Sequence record: NC_027356.1 | DNA from: Escherichia phage DT57C | Length of the DNA stretch: 64,000 bases | Direction: 5' to 3' (one strand) | Part shown: positions 5,221 to 9,809 of the stretch, piece by piece | How positions within the stretch are numbered: the first letter of the stretch is position 1 | Layout of the letters: each line of letters opens with the position of its first letter | Position numbers and translations under genes: made by a program | Notes under the pieces: generated by a model | The model's database searches: none | What the model was told of the DNA's origin: nothing | What the model saw: the letters and a program-made list of their open reading frames with translations, nothing else

Positions 5221-5260
5221 CTCATTAGCCAACTAACTATCTCATTAGCCAACTAACTAT
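5221..5260. repeat. Direct repeat 2 x 20 bp (ctcattagccaactaactat)
   Basis: Identical tandem copies read directly. Confidence 0.8.
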
Positions 5261-5265
5261 TTCAT

Positions 5266-5450
5266 AAGTTATAATAACTATAAAAATAATCACCGTTAAA
5301 ATAATCACTATAAAAATAATCACCATTAAAATAATAACTATAGAAATAATCACCATTATAATAATCACCATTAAAATAATCACTATAAAAATAATCACCA
5401 TTAAAATAATCACTATAAAAATAATCACCATTATTATAATCACTATAAGA
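5266..5450. repeat. AT-rich tandem repeat block (units ~12/24 bp, aataatcac[ct]a[t]taaaa)
   Basis: ~8 reiterations visible; explains spurious I/V-rich ORF 5237-5443. Confidence 0.8.
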
Positions 5451-5486
5451 AACTATCGGCTTAAGTGAGAACCACTATCATTTAAG

Positions 5487-5568
5487 TTATCCACAACGTT
5501 ATCCACAGCACAAAATGATTTGACACGATAGGCGGCGATATAAAGATTTATCCACAGACTTATCCACA
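5487..5568 (+). promoter_or_regulatory. Cluster of four DnaA boxes (TTATCCACA) in direct orientation
   Basis: Exact 9-mers at 5487, 5499, 5548, 5560; followed by LexA-like half-site ctgtatatttatccag (5579-5594). Confidence 0.6.
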
Positions 5569-5872
5569 GGTTATCCTACTGTATATTTATCCAGGGTAAA
5601 AAGATAGTGTTTACAACTGCAATCAATTTTGAGCGGCCTAAAACGCTTTCTAACGAGCTGATCGCTGTAGGGTAATATTAAAGTAAAGCCTTTACCCGTC
5701 GGCCTAGAGGCTTCGCCGTGTTTTGCTCTTTACTGCACCGCTGCGCGGTTAGCATAAAACTAGGTGTTAGGCAAGAAAAATAAAAAGTAAAGTAAACGTT
5801 GCCCCTAGAAAGAAAATAATTTTACCGGTAACATCGAAAGCGGGTAATAATTAACCTAATGTAAAGTTTTGT

Positions 5873-5902
5873 AAGGCCCGCCATAATCAGCGGCCTTTTT
5901 TG
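5873..5902 (+). terminator. Rho-independent terminator-like hairpin with T6 tract
   Basis: aaggcccgcc...gcggcc stem followed by tttttt. Confidence 0.45.
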
Positions 5903-5965
5903 TTATACTGCCCTTACACCGTTTAAGGACGGTTAAAAATTTCCCGAAAAATTTGGAGGCTTAAA

Positions 5966-6145
5966 ATGGTTATTTTTCGATCTATTCTGGCGGGTATCTT
6001 GGGCGCTATTTTAACTCTATTTGCTACCGCTTACGGTATTCAAGATTCTTATTGCGGTTTAGTAAATACTAAACCTATGGTTATTATTGGCGCGGGTATC
6101 GCTGTTTTTTCTTATTTGCTGGGCTGCATGAATAAAGGAGAATAA
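5966..6145 (+). CDS. Small membrane protein (~59 aa), first gene of small plus-strand operon
   Basis: GGAGG RBS then ATG; hydrophobic translation MVIFRSILAGILGAILTLFATAYG...; not in ORF track (size). Confidence 0.35.
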   Translation: MVIFRSILAGILGAILTLFATAYGIQDSYCGLVNTKPMVIIGAGIAVFSYLLGCMNKGE

Positions 6146-6147
6146 AA

Positions 6148-6360
6148 ATGATCCGCAACGTTTCTCTTGCTCGTTCCAAAGGTTTTAAGCTGGTGGATGT
6201 AAACACGTTCGAGCGTCCTGGTTGTAAAATCGAATATATAGCGCGGAATAAAAACGCTTTCCGCGTTACAGAAAAGAGATTCGATAAACGCGGCAACGTG
6301 ATAGCTGAAACGGTTAAATATTTTGCCACCTTTTACGCGGCCTTTCGTGGGGTATTATGA
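6148..6360 (+). CDS. Hypothetical protein
   Basis: 70-aa ORF; AGGAG RBS; translationally coupled to neighbours. Confidence 0.45.
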   Translation: MIRNVSLARSKGFKLVDVNTFERPGCKIEYIARNKNAFRVTEKRFDKRGNVIAETVKYFATFYAAFRGVL

Positions 6361-6483
6361 AGAGCGTTGTTATTGTTATCCTTGCAATGGTTGGCGGTTT
6401 TACCACCACCTTGTTTAGAAATGATCCTCTTTTGCTAGGGATCTTTATGCTTTTATCTGGTTATCTGATCGGGAGGTTATAAA
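6358..6483 (+). CDS. Small membrane protein (~41 aa)
   Basis: ATG overlaps upstream stop (ATGA); hydrophobic; by-eye call. Confidence 0.25.
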
Positions 6484-6828
6484 ATGGTGATTTATGAAGG
6501 TGATCGCCTTGTTGCTGATTGCCGTCCGGCATTGTTAGCAAACTACTTAAACCAGCTTTCGCCAGTATATAAAGGCGTTATAAATATTTATGAAGGCGGG
6601 GCGCATTATAAGATTAATGCGGTCGTTGCCCGTGAACTAGCGTTTCAATTTTTAACCTTTTCATCTTGCAATATTCAGGTCATGGGTGAGGCGTTAATTG
6701 CAGAAAATGAAGATGATTTTATTAATATCTTTCGCAAGATATGCACCGAGCGCCTGATAATGAAAGGGGCATATATTCAATCCACTGCGGATAGTATTGA
6801 AACGGCTTTTCGAAAGGTGGCACAATGA
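6484..6828 (+). CDS. Hypothetical protein
   Basis: 114-aa ORF; GGAGG RBS 6 nt upstream. Confidence 0.5.
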   Translation: MVIYEGDRLVADCRPALLANYLNQLSPVYKGVINIYEGGAHYKINAVVARELAFQFLTFSSCNIQVMGEALIAENEDDFINIFRKICTERLIMKGAYIQSTADSIETAFRKVAQ

Positions 6829-6952
6829 AGCTATATATTTTCGCGGGTAATGTTGAGGCTGCAAATGATTCCGCTGGTGGCGATAGCGTTCGCCATTATT
6901 GGCAAAATTATATTTACTAGGCGTAATGATCACGGGGCACAACTATCAGGGA

Positions 6953-6979
6953 GTGCCCCTGATTCTCAAATGAGAATGA
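6953..6979 (+). terminator. Hairpin (ggggcac...gtgcccc) at end of small operon
   Basis: 7-bp GC stem read directly; weak U-tract. Confidence 0.3.
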
Positions 6980-7182
6980 TTCTCATTTGACCGCGCCCGC
7001 GATGGTTAGCACACTAATGATTAGGGTGTTACGTGTCGCCTTGTGTGATCGTTAGCGGGCTAACTAATTTTCAAGCCTCCTCCAGATTTGCCCTTGTTTT
7101 AGTATCCCCATCAAAATAAAACGCGTTAGAAAGCGATTCAGGGCGTTTTAGGCCTATATTAGAATTATCCACTGCGTAGGAA

Positions 7183-7202
7183 TACTGTATATTTATACAG
7201 TA
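7183..7202. promoter_or_regulatory. LexA (SOS) box-like palindrome TACTGTATATTTATACAGTA
   Basis: CTGT-N8-ACAG with AT-rich spacer, matches E. coli LexA consensus at nearly all positions. Confidence 0.5.
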
Positions 7203-7211
7203 GAATAACCT

Positions 7212-7292
7212 GGGGATAAGTCGGTGGATAACGCTTCAAAATGGCTAGAATTTTGTCAAGGCAAATCGTGCTGTTGATAAGTCTGTGGATAA
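7212..7292 (-). promoter_or_regulatory. DnaA-box cluster in inverse orientation (TGTGGATAA and variants)
   Basis: Perfect box at 7284-7292, 1-mismatch box at 7224-7232, partial ttatc-core boxes nearby. Confidence 0.5.
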
Positions 7293-7309
7293 CTTAAATA
7301 ACAGTGTTT

Positions 7310-7590
7310 CTCACTTCCGTTTTTAAATGCGAATCATTATCATTTGCATTCCACTTCTTAAATGAGAATCATTTCACTTCTTGAATAGTTCTCATTCCCT
7401 TTCTTAAATGAGAATCATTTCACTTCTTGAATAGTTCTCATTTCACTTCTTGAATAGTTCTCATTCCACTTCTTAAATGAGAATCATTCCACTTCTTAAA
7501 TGAGAATCATTCCACCTCTTAAATGAGAATGATTATCATTCGCATTCCACTTCTTAAATGCGAATGATAATCATTCTCATTCGCATTCCG
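7310..7590. repeat. Tandem array of ~22-bp repeats (cacttctt[a/g]aat[g]agaatcatt), ~10 units, flanked by palindromes
   Basis: Repeats read directly; iteron-like organisation next to DnaA boxes. Confidence 0.8.
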
Positions 7591-7612: not shown

Positions 7613-7617
7613 GCTTA

Positions 7618-8361
7618 TGTGCAAATCCGACAATTGCTCCAAGGGTTACGCGAGGGCATGTATGTGCAAATCCGACCCATTTTTTGGTAGTGTGCAAATC
7701 CGACCCCAAAAATTTATAAATTCGTGAGAGTGACAAATCTGTCTCCCAAAAACTCCAGCAATCACGAACTGCGTTCGAATCCTGTGGGGTATGTGCAAAT
7801 CCGACACGGTTTTTCTAGGATTAAGATGTGCGAATCCGATGAAATTTTTGTGACTTCGATGAGAGGGTGTGTGATTGTATAGGTTTGAGGAGAAGATGAG
7901 AGAGCGAGAAAAATTTTGGGGCTAGAAGTGTATGGGCGCAGGATTGGTGCGGAGCACCTGATTTGCGGGGGTTTTGGGGGATAGTGGAGATAATTTGGGG
8001 AAATTTGAGATAGGTGCAGAAAAAGTAAAATTTTATTAGCTAAAGGGGGCAATATAGCTTGACAATTGAAAATTCTTGTGGCTCTAAAAACTCAGGCAAT
8101 CATGGGCCTTCGGCCCGAAATAATGCTGCTATTTTCAGGAGATTATATGTTCCTAAAAACTTAGGCGTTTGTGCAAATCCGACCATAAATTTCTAGAAAC
8201 ACAATGTGCAAATCCGACAGTAATTCCTGGAAATGTGTTTTCAAAAAATGTCTCCTAGAAATAACCGCCCTCCCTATAACCGCCCTCCCTATAACCGGCC
8301 TAGGTATGTAACGTTGGAGGGAAACTGCCCTAGAATATGTGCAAATCCGATTAATATTTTT
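7618..8361 (+). repeat. Dispersed array of 8 copies of 13-mer TGTGCAAATCCGA(C/T), most followed by N4-6 and a T-run; interleaved CCTAGAA motifs
   Basis: Copies at ~7618, 7663, 7692, 7792, 7827 (variant), 8169, 8206, 8347; a ninth inside CDS at ~10394. Confidence 0.75.
8261..8300. repeat. Direct repeat ataaccgccctccct x2 (+ partial third)
   Basis: Read directly. Confidence 0.7.
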
Positions 8362-8725
8362 GTGTGATCCCTAGAATTTGTGCTTATCAATTTCCTAGAA
8401 ACTTAGGAGTCTGCTAGAAAGTGTTGAGCCATCCTAGCAGATGAGCGGCAACCGGTGTATCATCTTGAACACAGATATTGCCTTTAAATTTTTATCAGTT
8501 ATTTAAAAGTAAATAGTCCCCCATTTCATGTGAGATTCCTCGTGGGGCGCGTGAGTATTACGGAAGACTTAGTAATTAGATCTATACTCGTGCTGTCGCA
8601 ACGTATAGACGTAATACTAAGTGTAATAATCATCGCCCCTAGAGTTCAAAACAAGAGTTGTTTTTAATCTATGAGATTATTATAACATGTTTGGGTATGA
8701 GAATGCAAGAACTTTTTGTTAACGT

Positions 8726-9082
8726 TTATACTTCCTCCTCGAGATTGGTATTAGGATCGTAAATTTTCTTGGCTCCTGTATTTAATAGGAATCGCTCTGC
8801 AAGTAGTGGGTGAATATCAAAGAACTCTGTGCATCCTTCGAATCCCTTTAAATTACAGCGGTATTTCTTAAAGTAGATATGAGCAGCGGCTTCTAGATCT
8901 CTAGGATTATGGGTTTCATAAATCCCATACACGTATAAATCGTCAAAACCACGATAAACTATATTATCTAAGTTTAGTGTTTGAATCCTATTATGTGGAT
9001 TCACACTGATACCGATCTTTGTTCTTTTAGGGATCTTCGTCAGATCCCTATTTGCAAGAATATATGCTTTATATAGTGACAT
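8726..9082 (-). CDS. Hypothetical protein; possible GIY-YIG/T5orf172-like motif (YKAYIL...KIGIS)
   Basis: 118-aa ORF; weak motif resemblance only. Confidence 0.45.
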   Translation of the reverse strand: MSLYKAYILANRDLTKIPKRTKIGISVNPHNRIQTLNLDNIVYRGFDDLYVYGIYETHNPRDLEAAAHIYFKKYRCNLKGFEGCTEFFDIHPLLAERFLLNTGAKKIYDPNTNLEEEV

Positions 9083-9809
9083 TCTTTCTAGCCTTTAGAT
9101 AGATTCCTTTAGATGCTAGATAGATATATGTAGCAAGGAATGAAGATGTAGATCCTGTTTCTTCAAGAGTAATAGATCCTTTTGCATAACGCTTAGTTCT
9201 AGGAGCCTGGTTAAGCACAAGTGCAGTGAGACTACCTAATCCTAGCGCATCCATTAAACGTTTGAAGGAGTCCTTTTCATCGTGGATAGCATATAGAATG
9301 TAATCTTCCGCTGTAGTTAGTTCTATATCGCGATGATGTGCCACTGCAATCCGTGCTACTACAGCTCCAATCGTTCTATAAATATCTTCAAACGTAATGC
9401 TAGTTTCAAAAGCTAATGCTGGAAGATGATCGAACTTACATTTCTTAGGCGGAATAAGAAGTTGTTCAGGATAAGCTTCTAGTGCCTGACGAACGTTTGC
9501 TTCTGGGTATGTTGGCAAAGGTTCATCTATAATAACATGTAAGAAATTAGCTCTGTGTCCTTTAGCAGTTGGATCTAAAGACTTCAATACTTTGTTCATA
9601 TCTACGTATGAATACGCTAGATCTGCTTGTGGGGCATTAATATCAAACTTAATCTTCTTACCCTCCCATTTAGCAGGGAACATCTCACAAACAAACATTA
9701 CTGCATGTTTAACCTCTGGCTCCAGCTCTGATAGACATTTGTGATCTGCTGTTACTGCTAGAGCGAGAATATTCTTAAATTTATTAGCTTCTTCAATCAT
9801 ATATCCCAT
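9069..9809 (-). CDS. Hypothetical protein
   Basis: 246-aa ORF, co-oriented, overlapping stop/start with neighbours. Confidence 0.55.
   Translation of the reverse strand: MGYMIEEANKFKNILALAVTADHKCLSELEPEVKHAVMFVCEMFPAKWEGKKIKFDINAPQADLAYSYVDMNKVLKSLDPTAKGHRANFLHVIIDEPLPTYPEANVRQALEAYPEQLLIPPKKCKFDHLPALAFETSITFEDIYRTIGAVVARIAVAHHRDIELTTAEDYILYAIHDEKDSFKRLMDALGLGSLTALVLNQAPRTKRYAKGSITLEETGSTSSFLATYIYLASKGIYLKARKNVTI

Follow-up and report, generated by a model that had tools for sequence, protein, structure and literature searches.

A probable pre-early operon of five small, translationally linked genes in the terminal repeat of a T5-like phage

Near the left end of a 64,000-nt stretch of phage DNA (the window, i.e., the whole stretch that was analysed), a run of very short open reading frames (ORFs) is read in the direction opposite to the annotated genes around it, which raises the question of whether these ORFs are genes, whether they are expressed together, and what kind of proteins they encode. 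A preliminary description had taken them for an operon of very small membrane proteins inside a repeat region. Positions 5400–7400 of the window are 99.8% identical, at identical coordinates, to Escherichia phage DT571/2 (KM979355/NC_047749; megablast), a T5-like member of Tequintavirus, and the window covers the left genome end. The segment 5966–6920 lies within the left terminal repeat, that is, in the first-step-transfer (FST) or “pre-early” DNA, and the record has the whole five-gene operon a second time in its right terminal repeat, so that its placement in a repeat region was right and the genome carries a pre-early operon of this kind in two copies. We conclude that 5966–6920 is very probably a rightward pre-early operon of a T5-like phage that consists of five translationally linked small genes. 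The block itself is already known, as it is described in the T5 literature and the DT571/2 GenBank record annotates three of its five genes; its variability, its opposite orientation, and the flanking DnaA-box inverted repeats are also in print, as is a large deletion in the sister phage DT57C (Davison, bioRxiv 10.1101/866236). The operon is real and largely ordinary, and what can be added concerns two genes that lack annotation, one misplaced enzyme name, and the mosaic architecture of the block.

The five ORFs are the following:

5966–6145, plus strand: 013 homolog, 59 aa
6148–6360, plus strand: 014 homolog, 70 aa
6357–6482, plus strand: p41, 41 aa, without annotation in the DT571/2 record
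6484–6828, plus strand: 015 homolog, 114 aa
6825–6920, plus strand: p31, 31 aa, without annotation in the DT571/2 record

Where four to five consecutive plus-strand ORFs of 31–114 aa had been proposed, five were found, spanning exactly 5966–6920. Their junctions are, in order, a 2-nt gap, an ATGA overlap, a 1-nt gap, and a second ATGA overlap, so the overlapping stop and start codons noted earlier apply to two junctions and the other two are gaps of 1–2 nt. Each ORF has a Shine-Dalgarno (SD) site, in agreement with the good ribosome-binding sites (RBSs) attributed to them: the SD/anti-SD duplex energies are, in gene order, −9.3, −8.7, −5.4, −11.0, and −7.2 kcal/mol, and just 5.9% of the ATGs in the window reach −6 kcal/mol or lower. 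ATG-started plus-strand ORFs that are 30 aa or longer make up 98.7% of the region, whereas in 2000 mononucleotide shuffles such ORFs covered 25% on average and never more than 75%. Every annotated flanking gene lies on the minus strand, whereas the five ORFs are plus-strand, which confirms the opposite orientation and reproduces the arrangement known from T5, where the block is read opposite to dmp-A1-A2. The conservation and dN/dS comparison that had been suggested as a check was carried out with pooled Nei-Gojobori estimates from 3–25 unique sequences (013, 014, 015, and p41) and from 12 unique sequences, including four Epseptimavirus loci, for p31. All five frames are under purifying selection relative to the alternative frames, with in-frame dN/dS values of 0.04–0.25 against 0.6–3.8 in the other frames (1.3–3.8 for the alternative frames of 013, 014, and 015).

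Around these genes, the following signals and repeats were located:

5463–5594, no strand: left inverted-repeat arm (“IRC-spacer-IRD” of T5, Repeat Region 2), 132 nt, outside the transcript
5873–5897, plus strand: stem of an intrinsic-terminator-like hairpin, with a T-run at 5896–5901 that overlaps the 3′ arm (by folding)
5901–5909, plus strand: extended −10 promoter-like element TGTTATACT (by sequence and conservation)
5918–5933, plus strand: small hairpin in the 5′-UTR, just 3′ of the predicted start (by folding)
6928–6964, plus strand: strong hairpin, putative terminator or 3′ stabiliser, 8 nt past the last stop codon (by folding)
7185–7316, no strand: right inverted-repeat arm (“IRD'-spacer-IRC'” of T5, part of the injection-stop region; by repeat search)

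The terminator and extended −10-like element that were said to precede the operon are both present in that order and conserved in relatives. The arms of the upstream hairpin (−10.5 kcal/mol, z −2.0; the T6 run starts within the 3′ arm) carry compensatory changes in about 20 relatives, and the hairpin with its T-run (5873–5901) is homologous to the annotated terminator at T5 7534–7559, after gene 011. The element TGTTATACT that follows has the hexamer TATACT in the studied phage, corresponds to TGnTATAAT in about 20 relatives, and gives a predicted transcription start near 5916; a predicted pre-early promoter is annotated at the matching place in BF23. At the upstream junction, the terminator that follows 011 in T5 is joined to the 012 promoter region. 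A simple promoter/terminator scan returned nothing beyond shuffle expectation and missed both the bulged terminator and the extended −10. The TATACT hexamer in place of TATAAT and the loss of the 011 promoter −10 count as points against the operon reading, through their bearing on promoter strength; the remnant of the 011 promoter (5799–5827) retains its −35, the −10 having been removed by a deletion. The small hairpin at 5918–5933 is non-significant on its own (z 0.25), and some relatives have a different sequence, CACCAAAACGGTGG, in this position that is also hairpin-forming. At the other end, the hairpin at 6928–6964 is strong (−22 kcal/mol, z −3.4; 0 of 200 shuffles were equally stable) and its motif is kept 3′ of the operon in relatives, but since it has no U-run, termination there is not assured.

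Both inverted-repeat arms are homologous to those of T5 (the left arm to T5 6098–6228, the right arm to T5 9411–9542), so the operon is enclosed by T5-type arms, which show 77% complementarity to each other in the repeat search. Two pairs of perfect DnaA boxes (TTATCCACA at 5487, 5499, 5548, and 5560) and a degenerate LexA-like box are found in the left arm, while the right arm, which bears DnaA boxes as well, has a perfect LexA-box-like palindrome (7183–7202) at its left edge; the 64-kb window has five perfect DnaA boxes in all, each of them within one of the two arms. The structure and conservation of the arms and their proposed role in the injection stop have been described (Davison, bioRxiv 10.1101/866236).

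[quoted passage not shown] For bas33_0173, the homolog of p41, the figure is 1.6, with its neighbours at 340–600 (PMC13250531). We regard this low value as a read-assignment artefact, which we infer from a 126-nt gene that abuts both neighbours, 2×150-nt reads, and the use of CLC, and we count it all the same as evidence against the operon reading. Tight same-strand coupling, a promoter-like element, conserved frames, and the transcribed block in Bas33 together support the interpretation of the five ORFs as an operon.

The claim that this is an operon of very small membrane proteins fared less evenly. Hydropathy places the 013 homolog and the 41-aa ORF in this class, these two being the sole ORFs with a hydrophobic stretch of membrane-spanning length, as expected of small (<60 aa) membrane proteins, and it does not place the 70-aa, 114-aa, and 31-aa ORFs there: the maximum 15-residue hydropathy of 014, 015, and p31 is at most 1.12, which falls short of a membrane span. 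Searches of Pfam and NCBIfam returned no family match for any of the five proteins. The DT571/2 record names the three larger ones as homologs of T5.013 (membrane), T5.014, and T5.015, to which they are 98%, 93%, and 89% identical over their full length (tblastn). The 013 homolog (phrog_5607, match 1e-30; dN/dS 0.04) has hydrophobic stretches at residues 1–25 and 37–55 and a GRAVY of 1.12, from which a membrane hairpin is predicted that would insert into the membrane. For T5.013, two transmembrane (TM) segments are predicted and expression was toxic and lytic (bioRxiv 10.64898/2026.04.02.716235); no toxicity was seen for 013 by Mahata et al. The 014 homolog is basic (net +9), soluble by hydropathy, and has a dN/dS of 0.06; its wider homologs form just 8 clusters, all of them T5-like, and sequence searches of the PDB with 014 and 015 gave no match.

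The 114-aa 015 homolog occupies the matching genomic slot and aligns with T5.015 over residues 1–114 at the 89% identity given above; it matches phrog_4379 with an E value of 1.8e-62 over 114/114 positions, and its dN/dS is 0.06. T5.015, a growth inhibitor, binds the Ung of the host and nicks Ung-made abasic sites (Mahata et al. 2021, PMC8201957), and it is toxic on expression. By this homology, the 114-aa protein is predicted to be an Ung-dependent AP-site endonuclease (nickase), a function carried over from T5.015, on which the biochemistry was done. Database labels disagree, since RefSeq (NC_005859 and NC_047749) and phrog_4227 put the Ung-dependent endonuclease label on the 70-aa 014 family. 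Three pieces of evidence point to the 114-aa 015 as its proper bearer and to an off-by-one error in RefSeq and PHROGs: the gene list in the original paper, which skips 001, 004, 006, and 010 (dmp, A1, A2, and hegG) and therefore follows the AY543070 numbering (PMC8201957); the numbering of Annor et al., identical to the AY543070 scheme (bioRxiv 10.64898/2026.04.02.716235); and the UniRef name of AAS77062.1 (114 aa), “DNA-(apurinic or apyrimidinic site) endonuclease”. The wrong nickase label on the neighbouring protein is now spreading to many genomes.

Neither micro-ORF is annotated in the DT571/2 record, but both behave as genes. The p41 product has hydrophobic stretches at residues 1–20 and 23–41 and a GRAVY of 1.38, and is predicted to be a two-helix hairpin that would sit in the membrane. 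It is present at full length in 158 phage records with 44–100% identity (tblastn), matches phrog_19184 (4.9e-23), a family without assigned function, and has a dN/dS of 0.25 in frame against 0.62 and 1.07 in the other frames. The motif GGF..K.DP.LLG..GYLxGRL is retained at 46% identity and is also kept in the Epseptimavirus version, which starts with TTG in a TTGA overlap, and both BF23 and Bas33 have an annotated 41-aa CDS for the homolog. Wider p41 homologs form just 17 clusters, all T5-like. The EPS7 homolog is frameshifted, from which it follows that p41 can be lost.

The last gene of the operon in the studied phage, p31, encodes a hydrophilic protein that is covered for at least 80% in 155 records and recognisable over its full 31 aa down to 61% identity (tblastn), with a match to phrog_22819 (3.2e-23), again a family without assigned function. 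A pattern scan of IMG/VR for the p31 module gave no copies beyond the genomes already found. Part of p31 overlaps a competing fifth ORF (6850/6865–6990) that is TM-like and corresponds to the annotated N-terminus of T5.016. This candidate was rejected: its dN/dS is above 1, most of its variation falls on codon position 2, its ATG is missing in Citrobacter phage YZU-L1, its 6850 start has a weak SD, and its tail crosses the terminator hairpin. Variable columns at codon positions 1, 2, and 3 number 12/9/20 in the p31 frame and 9/19/12 in the competing frame, and dN/dS is 0.20 in the p31 frame versus 1.37 in the +1 frame, or 0.15 versus 2.35 in the overlapping part. It is on the codon-position pattern, the dN/dS values, the loss of the alternative ATG, and the tail that crosses the hairpin that we identify p31 as the gene, the same frame that the preliminary description had chosen. 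The annotated N-terminal extension of T5.016 is probably wrong, with the p31 region of T5 covered by that extension. Both p41 and p31 are thus real micro-genes absent from the phage annotation, p31 being absent from the T5 annotation too.

In T5, the corresponding block is T5.011–T5.017 (AY543070), located between Repeat Regions 2 and 3 of the left repeat, and the two phages have in common the location between DnaA-box inverted repeats, the orientation opposite to dmp-A1-A2, the order 013-014-015, and the upstream terminator-promoter junction. DT571/2 differs from T5 in lacking 011, 012, the body of 016, and all of 017. One deletion removed T5 6439–7474, i.e., gene 011 together with its promoter −10; the deletion of 012 joined two start-codon regions, so that 013 is now served by the strong GGAGG RBS that had belonged to 012. 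The 41-aa cassette (6362–6471), on the other hand, was gained or kept in DT571/2 and is absent from T5, and p41 is in this sense a variable cassette. BF23 (BF23_00013–00017, with the p31 homolog annotated) and Bas33 (bas33_0175–0171) share the backbone and, unlike DT571/2, keep 011, 012, and 017 and have extra slot-B genes (m53, 016). Across 28 architectures, in which the order of the T5.013-014-015 orthologs is conserved, the backbone reads 013-014-(slot A)-015-(slot B)-p31-017. Slot A holds 0–2 small hydrophobic ORFs (p41, m40, m35), and slot B holds hydrophobic ORFs (m52, m53, m45) or small soluble ORFs, which brings the slot micro-protein families to at least six. No paralogy was found among the hydrophobic families 013, p41, m52, and m40 (hhalign probabilities <1%). 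At the end of every cassette stand a GGGAG-type SD, a stop, and an ATG, and these shared ends would provide short homologies for exchange. A tentative reading, which we consider possible and rather doubtful, is that the junctions flanking 015 are hot spots at which unrelated 31–53-aa membrane micro-proteins are swapped, diversifying membrane-targeted effectors rather than housekeeping takeover genes. If this is true, p41 would be one such membrane effector, e.g., against membrane-associated host defences or competing phages, and p31 an overlooked conserved micro-protein, and the variable slots would be a place to seek early-acting membrane-directed phage effectors.

Other explanations of the block divide over the hydrophobic genes, the micro-ORFs, and the repeats. 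That it is a dedicated membrane-protein operon, such as a holin-like, superinfection-exclusion, or anti-defence module, is suggested by the two-helix hydrophobic character of two of the five products, the lytic effect of the T5 ortholog of 013, and the unrelated 31–53-aa hydrophobic ORFs that relatives carry in matching slots. We nevertheless hold it to be unlikely, because three of the five products are soluble, including the two largest, and one of these is the DNA nickase; the 013 match to the Pfam family Phage_holin_10 is below the gathering threshold (13.3 bits versus a cut-off of 27, E 0.088), and p41 has no match to it. Moreover, T5 tolerates the loss of the entire hegG-017 block, with smaller plaques as the sole effect. 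The lysis genes of T5 are late genes located elsewhere in the genome, which also speaks against a holin-like module here. A different view of the soluble products, in which 014 partners the toxic nickase 015 or modulates it in an immunity-like manner and the pair resembles a toxin-immunity module, strikes us as improbable.

The opposite simplification would leave 013, 014, and 015 as the sole genes and treat the ORFs at 6357–6482 and 6825–6920 as non-coding open spacers, in keeping with the lack of annotation in the DT571/2 record, the near-zero counts of the Bas33 p41 homolog, the EPS7 frameshift, the absence of p41 from T5, and the modest third-position excess (binomial p = 0.04 for p41 and 0.03 for p31). 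We think it has little chance of being correct, as spacers would not be expected to remain full-length, with start and stop intact, across about 155 genomes at identities as low as 44% (p41) and 61% (p31), to show in-frame dN/dS values of 0.25 and 0.20 against 0.6–1.4 in other frames, or to conserve a protein-level motif between genera while the DNA diverges; each ORF also has an SD site, an ATGA overlap, and a PHROG family. The 132-nt inverted repeats and the highly mosaic content between relatives might finally recall a mobile or invertible cassette, but this we consider extremely improbable: the block contains no recombinase or transposase, its orientation relative to the flanks is constant in every locus examined, 49 records are collinear across both arms, and no inverted or transposed block was seen among these loci. 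The arms are conserved DnaA-box arrays with fixed spacing that are implicated in the injection stop, and the mosaicism is internal, at gene junctions, and not at the arms.

With the block read as a pre-early operon, a course of expression can be proposed. The operon lies in the roughly 8% of the DNA that is injected first, and the sigma-70 RNA polymerase of the host may start at the extended −10 at 5901–5909, just past the 011 terminator, to make one short mRNA that would end near the hairpin at 6928–6964. Ribosomes would then translate the five genes one after another, by way of strong SD sites and of ATGA or 1–2-nt junctions. The 013 homolog would be a two-helix inner-membrane protein, the 014 homolog a small basic soluble protein with a putative accessory role, p41 a predicted 41-aa two-helix membrane micro-protein in a variable slot, and p31 a 31-aa soluble micro-protein, each of the last two with a role that is likewise putative. 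The 015 homolog would bind Ung and nick abasic sites, leading to host DNA damage and the arrest of replication and division. Together, the five products may constitute an accessory module for host takeover, one that the phage can do without in the laboratory. The DT571/2 version has been trimmed by the deletion of 011, 012, 016, and 017, with 013 fused onto the 012 RBS.

The T7 class I genes and the T4 immediate-early clusters consist of many tiny, packed genes that are individually dispensable, often toxic, and mosaic between phages, and they are transcribed by the host RNA polymerase in the first minutes of infection. The block described here resembles them in its tiny, tightly packed, dispensable, and often toxic genes and in its mosaic content. 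What sets the T5-like block apart from the T7 and T4 clusters is that two-step injection and the DnaA-box inverted repeats mark its limits and that each terminal repeat contains a copy of it.

The function commonly attached to the second gene of the small-ORF operon appears to belong to its neighbour. Both RefSeq and PHROGs tag the 70-aa T5.014 family as an "endonuclease nicking abasic sites generated by host Ung", whereas Ung-dependent nicking is a property of the 114-aa T5.015 according to PMC8201957, and the AY543070 numbering and UniRef likewise give this function to T5.015. The latter family (window 6484-6828) corresponds to phrog_4379, where it is labelled "unknown function". T5.014 seems to carry the Ung-endonuclease tag through an off-by-one error, and the tag has spread to many phage genomes. 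The gene concerned is:

Window 6148-6360, plus strand (T5 NC_005859 8086-8298): T5.014 family, PHROG 4227, apparently mislabelled.

The ORF of p31, the 31-aa product at the downstream end of the operon, is present without annotation in T5 (AY543070, 8641-8736), and the annotated start of T5.016 (8681-8938) at position 8681, giving MIPLVAI..., sits in the +1 frame of p31. This +1 frame has a dN/dS > 1, and the real start of 016 is probably the ATG approximately 7 nt past the p31 stop codon (MITLICVK...). The annotated "repeat completion protein" (window 5237-5431, minus strand) consists of twelve 15-nt tandem repeats (ATAATCACYATWAAA) translated into MIIIMVIIFIVII... and is very probably not a gene.

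In EPS7 (NC_010583, 1207-1335), the homolog of p41, the 41-aa hydrophobic product, is split by a 1-nt frameshift: it reads MKTLFSILLGAAGGFIATYLK* and then, in the +1 frame, SDPALLGVYSICFGYLLGRL, and the record carries no annotation over it. The break either makes this homolog a pseudogene or stems from an old sequencing error. In the relative Bas33, the 126-nt p41 homolog bas33_0173 has an expression value of 1.6 against 340-600 for its abutting neighbours (PMC13250531 Dataset S1), probably because no 2x150-nt fragment can be mapped uniquely to so short a gene. Very short operon-internal genes may be systematically zeroed in such expression tables.

Comparison of 013, the first gene of the operon (window 5966-6145), with its relatives revealed two allelic forms:

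Long form of 013: 59-60 aa, with the loop GIQDSYCGLVNTKPM; this phage, T5 and others, ~59 records in all.
Short form of 013: 49-51 aa; ~305 records.

In this phage gene 012 has been lost through a join inside the two start-codon regions, which have ...AAATGGTT in common (window 5955-5971; T5 7613-7629 and 7892-7908), so that 013 now stands behind the stronger GGAGG RBS of 012. A separate deletion of 1036 bp took out gene 011 together with the -10 element of the 011 promoter.

At its edge, the right inverted-repeat arm flanking the operon bears a perfect palindrome resembling a LexA box, TACTGTATA(W)(W)TATACAGTA; the left arm often has one at its edge as well:

Window 7183-7202: right-arm edge.
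Window 5577-5596: left-arm edge.
T5 (AY543070) 6213 and 9409, and other loci: further sites.

Only 0.08 matches are expected in the window, and the palindrome is kept in both Tequintavirus and Epseptimavirus. It goes unmentioned in the Davison preprint (bioRxiv 10.1101/866236), and our literature search found no paper tying T5 to LexA boxes. Fur-box-like palindromes of the AATGAGAATCATT type, with a 23-nt period, occur at window 6964-6987 and 7300-7590. The one at 7560-7578 (GCGAATGATAATCATTCTC) matches the Fur consensus at 16 of 19 positions, and the equivalent places in relatives do so at 15-17 of 19. Taken with the DnaA boxes, these candidate Fur-like and LexA-like sites make the injection-stop region look like an array of sites for host DNA-binding proteins.
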